DNA of 64,000 bases from a virus. Location of the stretch: positions 1 through 64,000 of the IMG/VR virus record IMGVR_UViG_3300027631_000014. One strand, written 5' to 3'. Positions within the stretch are counted from its first letter, which is position 1, and every line of letters starts with the position of its first letter. Shown here piece after piece: positions 37,838 to 56,450 of this stretch. The position numbers were made by a program, and so were the translations under genes. The notes under the pieces are model-generated. The model had not been told where the DNA came from, made no database searches, and saw only the letters and a list, made by a program, of their open reading frames with translations.

Positions 37838-38704
37838 ATGGATTTAAAATCAATCAAAAACAAACTGAGTGCCTTACAGACATCCGGGCAGAAAAAAGAA
37901 AAAGTAGATTATTCAAAATATCTATGGAAACCAAAACAAGAAGGTAAGTATCAAATTAGAATTGTACCATCTAAATTAAACAAAAACAATCCATTTAGGG
38001 AGATATTTGTTCATTATGGTATGACTAAATTCCCAACATACGCCTTAACCAATTGGGGTGAAAAGGATCCAATTGTAGAATTCGTAAAACAATTACGTAC
38101 AACCAGTGATAAAGAAAACTGGAAATTATCTAAAAAATTAGAACCAAAAATGCGTATTTTTGCTCCTGTAATCGTTAGAGGTGAGGAAGACAAAGGTGTT
38201 CGTTTATGGGAATTTGGTAAAGAAATTTACATGCAATTATTAGGTATCGCTGATGATGAAGATTATGGTGACTACACTGATATGAATGAAGGTCGTGATT
38301 TTACTGTTGAAGCAGTAATGGGTGATGTTGGTGGTCGTCAAGGCTTAAAGTCATCAATTCGTATTAAACCAAAAACATCTCCATTAAGTACTAGCAAAAA
38401 TGATATTGAGTTATGGTTAGAAGAACAACCAGATATTCTTGAGATTCAAAATACCTACAAGATGACTTTTGATAAAATGAAAGAAATGCTTCAAAACTTT
38501 TTAAACCCAGAAGATGCTTCTGATGAAATAGATGAAGTTGAAGAAGAAACAACTGTTACTGCTGCTGGAGAAGATTTACCGTGGAAAGATGATAAAGAAA
38601 TTGAAAAATCTAAACCAACTAAAAACTATGAGTTAAAAGCACCAGCTGGTAAAGTATCAAAAGCAGACAAATTCGACTCTTTATTTGAAGAAGACGAAGA
38701 CTAA
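37838..38704 (+). CDS. Single-stranded DNA-binding protein (gp32-like)
   Basis: IRIVP, PF----HY, DPI-E, G-DF, acidic C-terminal tail. Confidence 0.8.
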   Translation: MDLKSIKNKLSALQTSGQKKEKVDYSKYLWKPKQEGKYQIRIVPSKLNKNNPFREIFVHYGMTKFPTYALTNWGEKDPIVEFVKQLRTTSDKENWKLSKKLEPKMRIFAPVIVRGEEDKGVRLWEFGKEIYMQLLGIADDEDYGDYTDMNEGRDFTVEAVMGDVGGRQGLKSSIRIKPKTSPLSTSKNDIELWLEEQPDILEIQNTYKMTFDKMKEMLQNFLNPEDASDEIDEVEEETTVTAAGEDLPWKDDKEIEKSKPTKNYELKAPAGKVSKADKFDSLFEEDED

Positions 38705-38722: not shown

Positions 38723-39811
38723 ATGGCTAAAACAAACGACAAAGATTCGTTAATGGAAGCAGTCTCTAAAGAACTTAAATCTAAATTTGATTTAAATAAA
38801 TTTAAAGAGAAGAAATCATTAGGCGGAAATGTAAAGTTCAAAGATCAAGCATGGATTCCCTTCTCAACAGCAATGCAAGAAGCACTATCTATTCCTGGAA
38901 TAGCAATGGGTCATATAAATATAGTACGTGGAGGTAGCAATACTGGAAAAACTACTACATCTATAGAGGCAGCTGTATCAGCACAAAAAATGGGTGTATT
39001 GCCTGTTCTTATTATTACTGAAATGAAACACAGCTGGGAACACTGGCAAAAGATGGGTTTCGAAATGAATGAAATAAAAGACAAAGATGGTGCTGTAATT
39101 GATTATGATGGATTCTTTATTTATAAAGATAGAGGTAAATTAAATTCAATTGAGGATGTAGCTGATTTTATTATTGACATTTTAGATGAACAAGCAAAAG
39201 GGAACTTACCATATGACTTATTGTTTTTATGGGACTCAGTAGGATCAATTGCTTGCAGAATGAGTATTGAACAAGGTAAAAACAACCCAATGTGGAATGC
39301 AGGAGCAATTGCAACTCAATTTGGTAATTTTATCAATCAACGAATCATTTTATCTAGAAAAGAAGAAAGTAAATATACAAATACATTCTTAATCATTAAT
39401 AAAACCGGAGTAGCTCCAGCTGAAAATATCTTCTCACAACCGAGAATGACTAATAAAGGTGGAAATACATTCTATTATGATGCTTCATTATGTTTGACTT
39501 TTGGTAATGTTACTAATAGTGGAACATCAAAGATCAAAGCTCAAAAAGAAGGTAAAGATGTAGAGTTTGCTTTAAGAACAAAAGTAGCATGTGATAAAAA
39601 TCACGTAAACGGAATCACTACTAAAAACACAGTTATCAGTACAGTACATGGTTTCATACCTGACGATCCTAAAGAGATCACTAAATATAAAAAAGAGCAT
39701 TCACATGAATGGGCTGATATATTAGGAGAGGGAAATTACAAAACTGTAGAAGATAATAGTGAGTGGAATGAAAAAGTAGATGTCACGGACATTGTAGAAT
39801 CTGAAGACTAA
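38723..39811 (+). CDS. RecA/UvsX-like recombinase
   Basis: GGSNTGKT Walker A, WDSVG Walker B, KGG, KNH. Confidence 0.85.
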   Translation: MAKTNDKDSLMEAVSKELKSKFDLNKFKEKKSLGGNVKFKDQAWIPFSTAMQEALSIPGIAMGHINIVRGGSNTGKTTTSIEAAVSAQKMGVLPVLIITEMKHSWEHWQKMGFEMNEIKDKDGAVIDYDGFFIYKDRGKLNSIEDVADFIIDILDEQAKGNLPYDLLFLWDSVGSIACRMSIEQGKNNPMWNAGAIATQFGNFINQRIILSRKEESKYTNTFLIINKTGVAPAENIFSQPRMTNKGGNTFYYDASLCLTFGNVTNSGTSKIKAQKEGKDVEFALRTKVACDKNHVNGITTKNTVISTVHGFIPDDPKEITKYKKEHSHEWADILGEGNYKTVEDNSEWNEKVDVTDIVESED

Positions 39812-39815
39812 AATT

Positions 39816-40865
39816 ATGAACAATAAAGATTTACTTAAACTTCTTGATGGAATCAAAGAAGATATAGTACCAATCCCCGAAGAAACTGGAGAAAGAACTC
39901 TAATAGTAGATGGTTTAAATCTATTCTTAAGAAACTTTGCAGTATTAAATTATATAAATGCGGAAGGTACACATATAGGAGGTTTAGGTGGATTTTTACG
40001 TTCATTAGGGTCTTTAGTTAAACAATTAAAACCTACATCAATTTATATTGTATTTGATGGAGTGGGTTCTTCTATAAACAGGAAGAATTTACTCCCTGAA
40101 TACAAGTCAGGAAGAAATGTTAATAGAGTTAACAAAACTTCTTTTGATAGTGTTGAAAAAGAAAACGAATCTAAAACAGACCAAATTATACACTTAATTC
40201 ATTATTTACAATGTTTACCAGTTAAAATTTTATCACAAGATGGAGTAGAAGCTGATGATATCATTGCGTTTTTAAGTAAAGAGCTTACTCAAGATAAGAA
40301 AAATAAAGTATATTTAGTATCTGCGGACAACGATTTTCTTCAATTAGTAGATGAAAATATATTAATGTATAGATCTGTAGAAAAAGAATTTGTAACGTCA
40401 AAAGATGTAAAAACAAAGTATGGAGTTCATCCTCACAACTTTCTTATCTATAAAACATTAATGGGAGATAAATCAGACAAAGTAGGTGGTGTTAAAGGAT
40501 TAGGACCAAGTAAATTAGGAAAGTATTTCCCAGAAATAATGGGTTCAGAAGAATTAACTATGGACCACATTTATGATATTTGTGCTTTAAAATTTAAAGA
40601 ACATGTTATATACTGTAGAGCATTAGAAGATTTTGACAATTTAAGAAAAGCTTATAAGATTATGAATTTAAGTAATCCTATGTTGGATGAGCAAGAAAAA
40701 GAATATATATTTAATCAAATAAAGGAATCCCCATACGAATTAAACATTGAAACGTTTTTAAGATTCTATCATGAAGATGGATTAGGAAATGTTTTGAAAA
40801 ATGTAGATTACTGGATACGAGATAATTGGGCATTAATTGACAAATATAATAAAACAAAAAAATAA
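39816..40865 (+). CDS. 5'-3' exonuclease / RNase H (PolI N-domain-like)
   Basis: VDG-N, VFDG, R----YK--R, EADD, SADND--QL, GDKSD---GV-G-G. Confidence 0.9.
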   Translation: MNNKDLLKLLDGIKEDIVPIPEETGERTLIVDGLNLFLRNFAVLNYINAEGTHIGGLGGFLRSLGSLVKQLKPTSIYIVFDGVGSSINRKNLLPEYKSGRNVNRVNKTSFDSVEKENESKTDQIIHLIHYLQCLPVKILSQDGVEADDIIAFLSKELTQDKKNKVYLVSADNDFLQLVDENILMYRSVEKEFVTSKDVKTKYGVHPHNFLIYKTLMGDKSDKVGGVKGLGPSKLGKYFPEIMGSEELTMDHIYDICALKFKEHVIYCRALEDFDNLRKAYKIMNLSNPMLDEQEKEYIFNQIKESPYELNIETFLRFYHEDGLGNVLKNVDYWIRDNWALIDKYNKTKK

Positions 40866-52228: not shown

Positions 52229-52562
52229 ATTATTTGCTGGTATTGTGTTTGGAATTATAGCACAAATTATAGTTTTCTTTCAACTACAAGGTCAATTAAA
52301 ATATGATTGGTTTAAGAATAACTATTGGTTAGTTGTCTTAATGGGTATACCCTCTTCTATGTTTTTTATGTATTCTGTGAAGAATTTAGTATTGGCATAC
52401 AACGGAGAAATGTGGCCTTCAAGACTAATTGGATTTTCATTAGGTGCGATTGTGTTTACTTATTTTAGTTGGTCTTTATTTGGAGAGCCATTTACCACTA
52501 AAACTATCATATGTTTAGTATTAGCTCTCTCTATATTAATGGTTCAATTGTTTATGAAATGA
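52221..52562 (+). CDS. Four-TM SMR/DMT-like membrane protein
   Basis: Four hydrophobic segments; LF-EP---K-IICL-L. Confidence 0.55.
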   Translation: MNKLFAGIVFGIIAQIIVFFQLQGQLKYDWFKNNYWLVVLMGIPSSMFFMYSVKNLVLAYNGEMWPSRLIGFSLGAIVFTYFSWSLFGEPFTTKTIICLVLALSILMVQLFMK

Positions 52563-53080
52563 TGAAAGAAGACGAAGATAATTTATGGTGTAACTACAGT
52601 GGAATGCCATCACCTATGTCATATATGAGGTGTGATAAATGTGATGAAGTTACATACGAATGTAAATGTAAAGAAAAAACAAATATGAATAAAGAACAAC
52701 AAGAGCTATTGGATGAGGCTTATAAGAATTATAAAAGAATCACGCATGAAACTAATGAAAAGAATCATTATGGTGAGTATTCCAAATGGGGTGATAACCC
52801 ACTAATCTCAGGGGTTCAGCATTTAACAAAAGATTCATTTATTCAAATGATAAAAATTAATTCTGAGTTCTCTGAAAAGTGGGGATTGAAAATTGATGAA
52901 CGAGAGTTGAGTTTGGAAGAGAGAATGGACTTAATCGATAAAATGCACCTTCGTTCCTATTCTGGTTGGCAAAATTGGAGTGTCGAAGAAATGGAGGATC
53001 GAATGAATAACGATTGGAATATCCCAACCCGACTAATTACAGTAACATATAATAATAAAACAATAGAAAGCTATGAGTAA
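52559..53080 (+). CDS. Free-standing protein homologous to the thyA inserts (core from ATG 52685; Cys-rich 42-aa in-frame leader)
   Basis: YKNY, FI--IK---EF--KWG, RELSLEER and IPTR all match segments of the downstream thyA. Confidence 0.75.
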   Translation: MMKEDEDNLWCNYSGMPSPMSYMRCDKCDEVTYECKCKEKTNMNKEQQELLDEAYKNYKRITHETNEKNHYGEYSKWGDNPLISGVQHLTKDSFIQMIKINSEFSEKWGLKIDERELSLEERMDLIDKMHLRSYSGWQNWSVEEMEDRMNNDWNIPTRLITVTYNNKTIESYE

Positions 53081-53474
53081 AACAATACCTGTAAAATACA
53101 ATGACGAAATTGTTGGATATACAACAGACGAAGGAAAGACAATTCAATTTAATGATAGCGATGCATCAAAAAGGGTGAACGAAATGCTTAGTCAAAAACA
53201 AACGGTATGGGTTTCATCAAGAGCGATTGGTGAAATTAAAAGTGACAACACGGTTGAAGAAAAAGAAAAGATATCATACGATATATCACACTTTGAAAAC
53301 ACAACGATAAAACAATTGAAAGTTATGAATAAAGAACAAGCAAAAGACGCACTAATTGAAGTGCTAATGAATCAAGTAATGGACTTATCAATGATGTCTA
53401 AAATTGAATTAGGTGATGATGTAATCGCTGAAATTAAACGACTAAAAGAAATTATTAATGATCAGACTCATTAA
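53073..53474 (+). CDS. Hypothetical protein, probably a fusion of two cassettes (second ATG 53325, MNKEQ...)
   Basis: Internal copy of the 53055-53081 junction at 53307-53333. Confidence 0.6.
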   Translation: MSKTIPVKYNDEIVGYTTDEGKTIQFNDSDASKRVNEMLSQKQTVWVSSRAIGEIKSDNTVEEKEKISYDISHFENTTIKQLKVMNKEQAKDALIEVLMNQVMDLSMMSKIELGDDVIAEIKRLKEIINDQTH

Positions 53475-53658
53475 AACACAAGAAGAACTTGAAGCATATC
53501 AAAAAGAGGTTCGTAACAGACAGTACGAAACAAATCCTGTGACAGCTGAGTTTGGTGATGGATTTGATAATCTAGAACCTTACAATTTTGATATTGAATA
53601 CATAAAAATAACAAGAGTTGATAATCACGAAATTATAGAACGAGTAAAATATGAATAA
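53458..53658 (+). CDS. Hypothetical protein
   Basis: 66 aa; stop overlaps the next start (ATGAATAA). Confidence 0.6.
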   Translation: MIRLIKTQEELEAYQKEVRNRQYETNPVTAEFGDGFDNLEPYNFDIEYIKITRVDNHEIIERVKYE

Positions 53659-53806
53659 CCTAGATAAACTGACAGTAGATAAAGTGGATAAATTTCTTAA
53701 AGAATTGTCTGAGGCGAATGTCGGTATAAGAAGAAAGTTATTAGCCATGAAAAAATTTTTAGAGAAAGAAACTATATTATTAAATAACAATGAACAAACT
53801 AAATAA
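53651..53806 (+). CDS. 51-aa protein starting MNNLDK, missing from the ORF track
   Basis: Translated by hand; start copies the thyA 5' end. Confidence 0.6.
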   Translation: MNNLDKLTVDKVDKFLKELSEANVGIRRKLLAMKKFLEKETILLNNNEQTK

Positions 53807-54044
53807 AACATACACAGACCCATTTCTAGGAGAAATAGAACTTTTAAAAGTTGGTGAAACATCTATGAACCTTATGGGTGAATCGGTAGTTCATACAATA
53901 TACACAGACAAATTTAATGGACATTACTATATTGATACTTGGACTACAACAGGGGGTGACCCAATTCCAATGAAGATAATACCTAAACGAGTAATAGATA
54001 AAATAATTCAAATAGAAAACGAAAAATTACCAAATGGAAAATAA
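53790..54044 (+). CDS. Hypothetical protein starting MNKLNKTYTD
   Basis: First 31 nt match the thyA start at 27/31. Confidence 0.65.
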   Translation: MNKLNKTYTDPFLGEIELLKVGETSMNLMGESVVHTIYTDKFNGHYYIDTWTTTGGDPIPMKIIPKRVIDKIIQIENEKLPNGK

Positions 54045-54477
54045 ACTAGATAAAGAACTAATAACACTAACAAAAAGTGATGTAATGTTTCTTATAGCAA
54101 GTGCTATGGGTTATGGATGGAATGAAGCATCTTCACATAGAAGTATTGAAGAATGTAATAAACGAAAAGAATTAGAACAAGAAAGATTACTTGAATGGAC
54201 TATACATTTATCTAATGGATTTCTTAAAGAACATACTCATCACAACCCATATGAAATGTATGATGTGAGTAAGGTTGAAAAATTAAAAGAAAAGTATAAC
54301 TTTGAATTGATTGATGATGTAACTCATAGGATTAATGATAAACCTTATTTTGTAGAAAGTTACAATTCTGGTTTAATGCAATTTTTAGAGTCGTACAAAG
54401 ATAAAAAAATGTACATTTATAGTAAATCATTACCACTCAAGCCTTGGGCCACCACTATTAGAGCAATTGTAATTTAA
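54034..54477 (+). CDS. Hypothetical protein starting MENKLDK
   Basis: 147 aa; AATAAACTAGATAAA identical to the thyA 5' end. Confidence 0.65.
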   Translation: MENKLDKELITLTKSDVMFLIASAMGYGWNEASSHRSIEECNKRKELEQERLLEWTIHLSNGFLKEHTHHNPYEMYDVSKVEKLKEKYNFELIDDVTHRINDKPYFVESYNSGLMQFLESYKDKKMYIYSKSLPLKPWATTIRAIVI

Positions 54478-54478
54478 A

Positions 54479-55918
54479 ATGAATAAACTAGATAAACAAT
54501 ACACAGACCTACTCCAAGACATCTTAGATAATGGAGTAACAAAAAGTGACCGTACAGGCACAGGAACGCTATCAGTATTCGGAAGACAGATTCGTCATAA
54601 AATGAGTGATGGGTTTCCTTTACTCACAACTAAAAAGATGGCTTGGAAATCAGTGGTAACTGAATTGTTATGGTTTTTAAGAGGAGATACCAACATCAAA
54701 TACCTTGTAGATAATGGTTGTCATATTTGGGACGGTGATGTGTATAAGAATTACAGAAGTAAAGCCTCTATGAGTAACGATAAAGATTGTTTAGTTAGAC
54801 AAGAAGAAGGTTCGTTGCTTAAAGAAATGAGACTTTTTACACAAGAAGAATTCATCAACAAAATAAAAACAGATGATGAGTTTGCTAATAAGTGGGGTGA
54901 TTTAGGTCCCGTGTATGGGAAGCAATGGAGGAGTTGGGGTGAAAGATATTCATCTTGGGAAAAATTTGAAGGTGGGATTGTTCCTGATGGTGTAGAAATA
55001 AAAAGTTTTGTACACAAAGGATTAATGACAAGAAAAAAAATAAAAGGTATAGACCAAATCGCAAACCTTATCAACGACCTTAAAACAAACCCAGACTCAA
55101 GACGATTAATGGTTTCAGCTTGGAATGTTGGAGAATTGGATTCAATGGTTCTTCCACCATGTCATTATGGATTTCAAGTTTATACAAGAGAGTTGAGTTA
55201 TGAAGAAAGATGTGATGTGTTTCAATTTACTACTGATTTCAACAAGGAAACCAGAGAACACCTTAAAGAATTCAATAATGATATTATGAATGACTATAAC
55301 ACCCCAACACGAGCAATCTCTCTAATGTGGAATCAACGTTCAGTAGATACATTCTTAGGTTTACCATTCAATATAGCATCTTATGGTTTACTATTAGAAA
55401 TCATCGCTAAAGCAGTTAATATGGTTCCTGATGAGCTAATTGGAAATTTAGGTGATGTACACCTTTACAGTAACCATGTTGAACAAGCAAAGGAACAGAT
55501 TGGTAGAGAGCTGAGTTTAGAAGAAGTTAAAAAAATCTATATTGATTGGAGCTTGTTAAAAAGTTCTGGAGGTTATGCTGGTGATATTAAAGCAGATATT
55601 TGTGAATTCACTAATCAGATATTTATTGATGGGTGGAAAAATAATAAAGACCCTTTCACAGGTAAACCTTTAATTGAACTTGAATGTTTTTTATTAAACT
55701 CCATTCACACAAGGCAACCATTCCCATTACCAACATTAAACATCAATGCAGAGTTCTGGCCAACAGAAAATGGTTCATGTGGAGAAGGACCATTAGATGC
55801 TATAGCAATATTTAACGGATTTAAAGATGATAATTTTTGTAAATGTTTATTAGAGGAAGATATACAATTAAGTAATTATGTATCTCATCCAAGCATTAAA
55901 GCACCTTTATCAAATTAG
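54479..55918 (+). CDS. thyA: Thymidylate synthase with multiple in-frame inserts (479 aa)
   Basis: DRTGTGT, FPLLTTKK, ELLWF, GPVYGKQWR, DSRR, LPPCH, QRSVD--LGLPFN, GD-HLY-NH. Confidence 0.96.
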   Translation: MNKLDKQYTDLLQDILDNGVTKSDRTGTGTLSVFGRQIRHKMSDGFPLLTTKKMAWKSVVTELLWFLRGDTNIKYLVDNGCHIWDGDVYKNYRSKASMSNDKDCLVRQEEGSLLKEMRLFTQEEFINKIKTDDEFANKWGDLGPVYGKQWRSWGERYSSWEKFEGGIVPDGVEIKSFVHKGLMTRKKIKGIDQIANLINDLKTNPDSRRLMVSAWNVGELDSMVLPPCHYGFQVYTRELSYEERCDVFQFTTDFNKETREHLKEFNNDIMNDYNTPTRAISLMWNQRSVDTFLGLPFNIASYGLLLEIIAKAVNMVPDELIGNLGDVHLYSNHVEQAKEQIGRELSLEEVKKIYIDWSLLKSSGGYAGDIKADICEFTNQIFIDGWKNNKDPFTGKPLIELECFLLNSIHTRQPFPLPTLNINAEFWPTENGSCGEGPLDAIAIFNGFKDDNFCKCLLEEDIQLSNYVSHPSIKAPLSN

Positions 55919-56424
55919 CGATATTTATTAGTATGATACGATTAATTGATTTATTAAGAGAAGTCGGTGAAGGAACATCCCAAACGTATAAGTGGGAAGA
56001 GTTATCATCTGATAGATGGTTTACAATTGTCAGTTTTACAACTGATTCTGAAACTGAGTATCAAGTTGAGCTAGAGTATTTTAAGAGTAGTTTCCCATTT
56101 GCAACTGGGTTACCTGGAATTGCACTAGAATTTGTAGCTAAACTTAAAGGAGAGGATGAGTTTTCAAACACTGTCGTAACAAATAAAGGAGAGGTGTATA
56201 AGGTAATGGCTACTATAGTTAATATAGTTCAGCAATACTTAAAAGACAATAAGATTATTACATATACACCAGAGAAGAAGGCGGGAGAAGAGTTTGGTAA
56301 GAAGAGAGATAGTTTGTATAAAGCATTTATTACTAAAAAGTTTCCTAATGTGGAGTTTAAACAAGTGGGAGAGGTGATAATAGCAATCTTACCCAATCAT
56401 TAATAAAGCACCTTTATCGAATTA
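55897..56424 (+). repeat. 21-bp direct repeat (55897-55917 and 56404-56424) flanking gene 55933
   Basis: TAAAGCACCTTTATC(A/G)AATTA, 20/21 identical, each followed by ATATTTATTA. Confidence 0.9.
55933..56403 (+). CDS. Leader-bearing hypothetical protein (MIRLIDLLRE...)
   Basis: 156 aa, own late motif at 55921; similar to 43259. Confidence 0.75.
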   Translation: MIRLIDLLREVGEGTSQTYKWEELSSDRWFTIVSFTTDSETEYQVELEYFKSSFPFATGLPGIALEFVAKLKGEDEFSNTVVTNKGEVYKVMATIVNIVQQYLKDNKIITYTPEKKAGEEFGKKRDSLYKAFITKKFPNVEFKQVGEVIIAILPNH

Positions 56425-56450
56425 AGTTATATTTATTATAAAACATAACC

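Follow-up and report, generated by a model that had tools for sequence, protein, structure and literature searches.

Unrelated small genes upstream of the thymidylate synthase gene thyA of an uncultured aquatic phage begin with a copy of the first codons of thyA itself. We analysed positions 1 to 64,000 of the IMG/VR virus record IMGVR_UViG_3300027631_000014; this whole stretch of 64,000 nucleotides (nt) is called the window. The short repeat that copies the thyA 5' end was named R, with the source copy at 54479-54509, and R is derived from thyA. We consider it probable that R is a short coding linker in a hyperplastic island between a conserved anchor open reading frame (ORF) and thyA, where it serves as recombination junction, as start module and as the end of the upstream ORF.

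R consists of ATG and thyA codons 2-6, at times extending up to codon 11, with the consensus ATGAAYAAMCTAGATAAA[CAATACACAGAC]. It is 15-31 nt long, and the thyA-derived prefix varies from 6 to 11 codons. Four consecutive genes, starting at 53651, 53790, 54034 and 54479, have such 5' ends, as an earlier note on this DNA had reported; they are three small cassettes, ORFs A, B and C, and thyA (Table 1). The start of ORF A, ATGAATAACCTAGATAAAC, matches thyA at 18 of 19 nt, that of ORF B at 27 of 31 nt, and in ORF C the codons ATG and GAA are followed by AATAAACTAGATAAA, which is identical to thyA codons 2-6 at 15 of 15 nt. The 18-mer is found eight times in the window at no more than three mismatches, compared with 0.72 occurrences expected from shuffles. 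Among approximately 91 gene starts of the whole 76.8-kb record, only those of these four consecutive genes carry N[NK]L[DN]K, and none of the other approximately 87 genes begins with R. The Leu codon in all four copies is CTA, which accounts for 10.8% of Leu codons genome-wide. That this rare codon is common to all four copies places the copying at the DNA level and not just at the peptide level. Beyond the prefix, none of the bodies of A, B and C resembles ThyA (local alignment z of -1.1 to 0.1 against shuffles), which agrees with the statement in the note that the sequences are unrelated after the first codons and rules out that these ORFs are decayed copies of thyA. Neither A, B and C nor the left-anchor ORF had a Pfam or PHROG match.

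R recurs in related phages. A first set held 52 non-redundant viral loci with a related thyA (50-76% amino acid identity; MNKLDKQY was one search pattern). Each ORF start was compared with the start of its own thyA, a match of at least 15 of 21 nt was required, and the window was left out of the count. The ORF directly upstream of thyA had a thyA-like start in 8 of 50 loci, compared with 4 of 851 other ORFs (Fisher p=2e-8). For a second set, which held 59 non-redundant loci, the left small ORF (MNKEEAKD...MSKIELGDDVIAEIKRL) served as the anchor. In many of these loci thyA comes directly after the anchor; elsewhere one to eight small ORFs lie between them, of which 0-3 begin with MN[NK]LDK, in differing order. 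The number of R copies per locus is 0-6 and their order varies, with six copies in 1.05 kb in locus L105 and three each in L110, L199 and L086. The earlier note had expected MNxLDK-starting ORFs to vary in number and order upstream of thyA among relatives, and they do.

In a count that took in only ORFs near a thyA, unique R-starting ORFs other than thyA numbered 22 at 0-750 nt upstream of thyA, six at 750-1500 nt and five at 1500-3000 nt; past the thyA start there were none in the first 1.5 kb and two farther away. R-starting ORFs, which have the leader MN[NK][LI][DN]K, fall into 17 families with unrelated bodies, and almost all lie within 1.5 kb upstream of thyA. A single ancient family of thyA-adjacent ORFs was ruled out, because at least 17 body-unrelated families carry the prefix. 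The thyA start MNxLDKQY itself is conserved in more than 50 non-redundant viral loci, most of them without an upstream copy. In the cultured Flavobacterium phage immuto, thyA begins with MSTNNLDKQY and no R cassettes lie upstream. A scan of all viral contigs for the 18-mer, which was not used for prevalence, found thyA starts and probable chance matches at unrelated genes among the matches listed.

Prefixes, breakpoints and scars

The same gene bodies carry different starts in different places. ORF C is chimeric and combines two modules, called C1 and C2. Next to thyA, the C1 body (LITLTKSDVMFLIASAMGYGWNE...) has the prefix MENKLDKE in the window, MNKLDKE in L081, MNKLNKE in L105 and MNSIDKQYTDL in L062. 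In L084, where the array is unlinked to thyA, C1 stands alone as a module with the prefix MNKEE, and it occurs alone in L062 and L105 as well. Members of the GLFDMMD family start with MAG or MSG in four loci and with MINNLDK-MGG directly before thyA in L028. The TYSIPxYENG family has MNKLDN or MNNLDN near thyA and MSKED three genes upstream in L199. In these three families the prefix is absent outside an R context, as the idea put forward in the earlier note implied.

Locus L069 belongs to the same phage lineage, and its flanks, ORF B and thyA core are 96-100% identical to the window. Between the two loci the A slot has been replaced, B is kept and C shows an exact presence/absence difference. 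In L069 the A slot holds a different R-cassette (MNNLDKHLLPKD) and an extra ORF. ORF C is absent from L069; both junctions of this indel lie within R, and one repeat copy is kept. The upstream context of ORF C, CCAAATGGAAAAT, overlaps the ORF B stop and is the exact context of thyA in L069. The start of thyA in L069 is CCAAATGGAAAATAACATAGATAAACAATAC, that of ORF C in the window is CCAAATGGAAAATAAACTAGATAAAGAAC, and thyA of the window resumes with ATGAATAAACTAGATAAACAATAC. These matching start contexts indicate that ORF C occupies the initiation context held by thyA in L069. The earlier note had proposed that each new ORF enters at the thyA start, inherits its initiation signal and regenerates thyA downstream. 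In part this agrees with the comparison, as C appears to have taken the initiation site of thyA with an intact thyA start regenerated downstream. However, we found no evidence for entry solely at the thyA-proximal site. Swaps of cassettes are also seen at R copies inside the array and at another junction repeat, R', which is unrelated to R.

Identity blocks were compared between the window and six relatives or pairs of relatives (L069/L087, L086/L148, L081/L093, L105, L084 and L091/L092). The blocks end at 53648-53668, 53786-53790, 54040-54057 and 54474-54482, and every one of these ends lies on an R copy. In four other metagenomes, from marine and fresh waters, contigs end or diverge at 53658, 53789, 54046/54054 and 54479; such contigs give breakpoint positions, not frequencies, and interpretation was confined to the contig-covered parts. 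The block of ORF A, 53648-53790, is 95% identical at a non-syntenic place in L105. ORF B is 96-97% identical in L069 and L086, and L086 has a paralogue of B with the same body, DPFLGEIEL, and a different prefix, MNNLDKIIKHK. Synonymous and non-synonymous differing codons number 5:1 and 6:2 for ORF B compared with L069 and L086, respectively, and 8:1 for ORF C compared with L081. As the differences from close relatives are mostly synonymous, B and C are, judged by their codons, real genes under purifying selection.

Solo copies of R are scars. In L001 such a copy forms a 7-codon ORF (MNNLDKQ and a stop) 30 nt before thyA. In L105 a mutated solo copy forms the mini-ORF MNNLYKQ, whose stop codon TGA overlaps the ATG of the next ORF, and one cassette of this locus is inactivated by a change of TGG to TAG.

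The island and the wider locus

The features of the island are listed in Table 1. thyA is its right-hand anchor, and the product scored 302.7 bits against PF00303 (cut-off 24.3). The final codons and the stop of ORF A sit within the next R copy. Inside ORF B, a second ATACACAGAC stretch lies at 53893-53915 and encodes TIYTDKF, compared with KTYTDPF at the N-terminus; part of the extended thyA similarity of ORF B is thus repeated internally. The C2 module of ORF C (NPYE...YKDKKxYIYSKSLP..TIRAIVI) is fused elsewhere to the left-anchor family and not to C1 (proteins P0006-P0010).

Table 1. Positions in the window of the parts of the thyA-upstream island and of related features
Feature	Position	Strand	Match or remark
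UvsX-like recombinase	38723..39811	+	PHROG 97, E=6e-19
Free-standing ThyA-insert homologue, MNKEQQELLDEAYKNY...TIESYE	52685..53080, inside ORF 52511-53080	+	z=10 vs window thyA
Second junction repeat R' (..ACAATAGAAAGCTATGAGTAAA)	53044..53081, second copy 53296-53333	+	repeat search
Left-anchor small ORF, MNKEQAKDALIEV...MSKIELGDDVIAEIKRLKEII	53325..53474	+	conserved in 224 viral stretches
Island ORF without R, MIRLIKTQEEL, 66 amino acids	53458..53658	+	TAA stop inside R of cassette A
Cassette ORF A, 51 amino acids, MNNLDKLTVDKV...	53651..53806	+	R copy 53651-53668
Cassette ORF B, 84 amino acids, MNKLNKTYTDPFLGEIEL...	53790..54044	+	R copy 53790-53820
Cassette ORF C, 147 amino acids, MENKLDKELITLTKSDV...	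54034..54477	+	R copy 54034-54054
thyA, thymidylate synthase with several insertions, 479 amino acids	54479..55918	+	PF00303, E=2.4e-90
Gene 55933-56403 and flanking repeats	55897..56440	+	weak DUF6934 match (Pfam)

The left-anchor ORF is here fused in frame to the preceding cassette (MSKTIPVKYND...), giving a 133-residue ORF at 53073-53474. The fusion results from TTG in the R' copy at 53296-53336, where other copies have TAG. R' (CAATAGAAAGTTATGAATAAAGAA) has stops in the frames of the upstream ORF that overlap the next ATG, and in L084, L086 and L081 it stands before one ORF after another over long stretches of the array. The ORF at 52685-53080 matches two insertion segments of ThyA, residues ~87-135 and ~200-285, and the catalytic core is absent. 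ORFs of this ThyA-insert-like family have up to 84% identity with the thyA inserts of other phages; 22 of 24 lie upstream of thyA, and paralogues are stacked in L086, L084 and L081. Between 52400 and 56600, a scan for sigma70-type promoters found 14 sites compared with 20.4 expected, Bacteroidota-type promoters being outside its scope, and two terminator-like sites, both on the minus strand, compared with 1.3 expected.

The same logic holds at the 3' end of thyA. A direct repeat of approximately 37 nt, which contains the last six thyA codons, the stop and a spacer of approximately 12 nt, brackets the gene at 55933-56403 with copies at 55897-55933 and 56404-56440. The protein of this gene shows weak local similarity to ThyA residues ~225-332 (z about 5). 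Within thyA, the segments 54770-54840 and 54960-55070 are wholly replaced compared with L069, to which the gene is otherwise ~97-100% identical, indicating that thyA is mosaic at its insertion loops.

Endonuclease genes stand at the thyA locus of several relatives. In L086 (2479-5000), a GIY-YIG/NUMOD3 endonuclease gene and thyX (Thy1) take the place of thyA. To their left, three MNNLDK/MNKLDK ORFs remain in a row, and to their right lies a 70-residue ORF that ends in a remnant of the ThyA C-terminus, matched by its last 30 residues. It seems that a non-orthologous gene has replaced thyA between the linkers of thyA. In L081 (3422-5410), an intron-like, endonuclease-type ORF with a NUMOD1 domain has been inserted into thyA and splits it, and in L082 (4329-5051) an I-TevI-like GIY-YIG endonuclease is encoded just downstream of thyA. 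By these domain matches, the thyA locus of the relatives is a homing-endonuclease hot spot.

The 76.8-kb record has a G+C content of 30.6%, all of its ~91 genes are on one strand, and its completeness is ~47% (CheckV). PHROG matches in the window include tail sheath, major head protein, DNA polymerase, DnaB-like helicase, SSB, exonuclease and the UvsX-like recombinase that the earlier note had placed at 38723. Judged by thyA DNA, no cultured relatives are nearer than the 160-kb Flavobacterium myophages of the genus Immutovirus, and the phage is a myovirus of about 160 kb whose host is probably one of the Bacteroidota. In the whole record, a Shine-Dalgarno-like 4-mer is found upstream of only 5 of 94 genes, and the regions 5' of gene starts are 55-67% A. 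The scarcity of these 4-mers and the A-rich upstream regions fit a Bacteroidota-type, Shine-Dalgarno-independent host. Genes overlap or are at most 15 nt apart at 58 of 93 junctions of the record.

Possible roles of R

If R is a coding linker, it would act as a homology patch where the general recombination system of the phage exchanges, adds and removes cassettes, both inside one phage and among relatives that infect together. Each cassette would carry one R at its head and thyA would keep one, so that all cassettes, and thyA of many phages that circulate together, would have this patch of DNA identity in common. For a UvsX-type system, R could be one exchange arm and the long thyA homology the other, and circular intermediates may take part. 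The UvsX-like protein, with an SSB gene at 37838 and an exonuclease gene at 39816 near its own gene, is candidate machinery for such short-homology exchange. In translation, R may give the incoming ORF body a proven initiation region that is rich in A and free of structure, in a genome where Shine-Dalgarno sequences are hardly used, and the stops that R has in both other frames would make the ORF before it end just where the next one starts. On this reading, each family must have gained its first R-cassette by illegitimate joining within the first thyA codons, and the breaks for such joining could come from the homing endonucleases that are frequent at the locus in relatives.

Several points weigh against this reading. 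Exchange events and circular intermediates were not directly observed, as the data are contigs. At 15-31 nt, R is short for efficient homologous exchange; patches of <50 bp are cited as sufficient in T4 in a paper on PeSLs, a linker system of T4-type phages, which gives no efficiency at ~20 nt (PMC2839356). Breakpoints at gene starts are also partly expected from selection for viable recombinants. R begins exactly at ATG, and there is no upstream similarity among the four copies of the window or the three copies of L086; the exact start at ATG suggests that selection has acted on translation no less than on recombination. R copies are not significantly closer to their own thyA than to the thyA of other phages (permutation p=0.14). 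Concerted evolution of a copy and its own thyA, which we had considered as a candidate, has thus left no sign. Finally, the same islands also hold cassettes that lack R, which shows that a cassette can reside there without it.

A broader form of the linker reading, which we put forward tentatively and regard as possible but doubtful, is that the first 6-11 codons of thyA were co-opted as a recombinase-free 'coding linker' that combines an 18-30-nt attachment sequence, a Shine-Dalgarno-independent start and a two-frame terminator. Any ORF body that came to lie beside thyA would be expressed with a ThyA prefix and would be able to move on. R would then be part of a general platform for gene capture and the birth of chimeric genes in aquatic Bacteroidota myophages, operating also at the thyA 3' end and at the second junction repeat.

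R might instead be a passive scar, namely the target duplication left by insertion into the first codons of thyA, and have no later role in exchange or expression. Such an insertion could come about, for example, by template switching or by microhomology-mediated repair of breaks where homing endonucleases often cut. The hot spot seen in L082, L081 and L086 would supply the breaks, the gene downstream of thyA likewise lies between direct repeats of a target end, and ORFs made of internal thyA fragments accumulate upstream. We nevertheless think this rather unlikely, because the same cassettes are found elsewhere with other neighbours and with R retained (A in L105, B in L086), and because one body can have prefixes of differing length and even a different linker, which exceeds what one-off scars would leave.

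It is likewise unlikely that R is kept for translation only, as an efficient Shine-Dalgarno-independent initiation and stop-restart element whose link with breakpoints is a by-product of gene boundaries; any ORF that acquired it by chance would then be expressed and kept. The position of R exactly at ATG and its A-rich, unstructured sequence agree with such a role. The four R start regions of the window fold at 0 to -1.2 kcal/mol, no better than shuffles, and a structured RNA operator at the starts was ruled out, as no structure was found. R carries two stop codons in each of the two other frames, which only 2 of 94 gene starts reach, and the stops of three of the four upstream ORFs in the window fall inside R. 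The solo R of L105, a 7-codon leader ORF overlapping the next ATG, points the same way. No RegA-type translational repressor (PF01818) was matched in the record; control genomes likewise gave none. However, a role in translation alone leaves unexplained why R-bearing ORFs are confined to just upstream of thyA and why R is absent from the ~87 other genes.

R could also be a site that a dedicated recombinase or nuclease recognises or uses for attachment. The gene of this enzyme would lie in the half of the genome that the record lacks, and the locus would be a true integron analogue. R contains CTAG, its boundaries are sharp and conserved, it forms arrays of up to six copies, and the record is far from complete. 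We consider a site-specific system improbable all the same. In line with the earlier note, which had seen no integrase nearby, neither tyrosine recombinases (PF00589) nor serine recombinases (PF00239) had a match in the 76.8-kb record, itself ~47% complete, and the record has no GIY-YIG gene. No inverted repeat, hairpin or attC-like structure was found in R at the four junction regions, the length of the prefix varies from 6 to 11 codons, and the unrelated R' does the same job.

It is very improbable that MNxLDK is a functional peptide tag, an N-terminal leader with a common role at the protein level. The model for this would be the capsid targeting of the T4 internal proteins (IP), as T-even internal proteins are unrelated save for an N-terminal leader that directs packaging, and the IP loci and the thyA locus are alike in their variability. 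Here, however, the tag is the N-terminus of a metabolic enzyme, and longer copies run into the first helix of ThyA (QYTDL). Its length varies, the copies are identical at synonymous sites, and solo R copies encode only 7-codon ORFs. Packaging into the capsid with removal of the R leader by a prohead protease seems unlikely from the sequences.

Chance resemblance from AT-rich codon bias at gene starts has a negligible likelihood as the source of R: MNK, MNN and MKK starts are common in these phages and the 18-mer also stands at unrelated gene starts among the matches listed for all viral contigs, but the enrichment over shuffles, the uniqueness of the four consecutive genes in the genome and the position-specific enrichment (p=2e-8 in 50 independent loci) rule it out.

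Comparison with known systems

The closest known cases are the T-even IP loci and PeSL shuffling in T4-type phages. The T-even IP loci are reportedly polymorphic, with small ORFs that vary in number, order and identity. Otherwise unrelated IP ORFs are said to have in common a conserved N-terminal leader of about 10 residues, and this conserved gene-start sequence was reportedly proposed to mediate recombinational shuffling in the locus. The thyA locus likewise has unrelated ORFs with a common N-terminal leader in variable number and order. However, the IP leader is a dedicated capsid-targeting signal, whereas the R leader is a copy of the start of the neighbouring thyA. The IP loci also have conserved promoter-containing blocks upstream, whereas here the similarity starts from ATG and no promoter-like block is found.

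PeSLs are intergenic composites of ~100 bp in which a sigma70-like early promoter is combined with a terminator of the stem-loop type (Arbiol et al. 2010, PMC2839356; PMC4122927). In that system, ORFans in hyperplastic regions are flanked by repeated linkers, close relatives differ by linker-bounded indels, and mini-circles of one linker and an ORFan have been shown; the authors invoke general phage recombination, not an integrase, and draw the integron analogy themselves (PMC2839356; PMC4122927). Indels and replacements at the R locus are also bounded by a repeated linker between close relatives. In contrast to PeSLs, R is a coding sequence of 15-31 nt without promoter or stem-loop, and its cassettes are tightly coupled with stops overlapping starts.

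Like integrons, the R locus has co-oriented promoterless cassettes at a fixed site, in variable number and order, which would be expressed from signals at the insertion point. Unlike integrons, it has no IntI in the ~47% complete record, no folded attI/attC sites and no Pc promoter, and R forms the 5' end of every cassette ORF and is translated with it. The array that the earlier note called integron-like thus does exist beside thyA, with variable number and order of cassettes, but no integrase was found in the ~47% complete record and no attC-like structure at the junctions. As an analogy, the integron holds for the architecture and not for the mechanism. Linker-mediated modular shuffling in a phage hyperplastic region is the known kind of system that fits better.

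Deletion and duplication between short direct repeats occur in the lytic phages T4 and T7, and Botstein's linker model describes modular evolution. The presence/absence of ORF C compared with L069, which keeps one repeat, and the repeats at the thyA 3' end that flank the downstream gene are similar to such events. In contrast, a single R is reused by many unrelated cassettes in many phages. This reuse and the coincidence of R with the start codon suggest co-option, not an incidental repeat.

To our knowledge, few linker systems have been described so far (PeSLs and the T-even IP loci), all from coliphage-type T4 relatives. Our literature search found no paper on sharing of the thyA start. Compared with the known systems, the new features of R are that the linker is coding, is copied from a neighbouring metabolic gene and has no promoter or stem-loop elements. 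How lytic phages acquire, express and lose ORFans is poorly understood, and the coding start of a core gene is a different kind of linker, present in widespread uncultured freshwater and marine phages. It provides a searchable signature, unrelated proteins with a common ThyA N-terminus, and concrete cases of chimeric small proteins, namely C1 and C2 in ORF C, the anchor ORF fused to C2 and the ORFs from thyA inserts. If the linker reading is true, cassette mobility would be linked to the way in which translation is initiated in hosts without use of Shine-Dalgarno sequences, a mechanism that the cultured relative, Flavobacterium phage immuto, makes testable.

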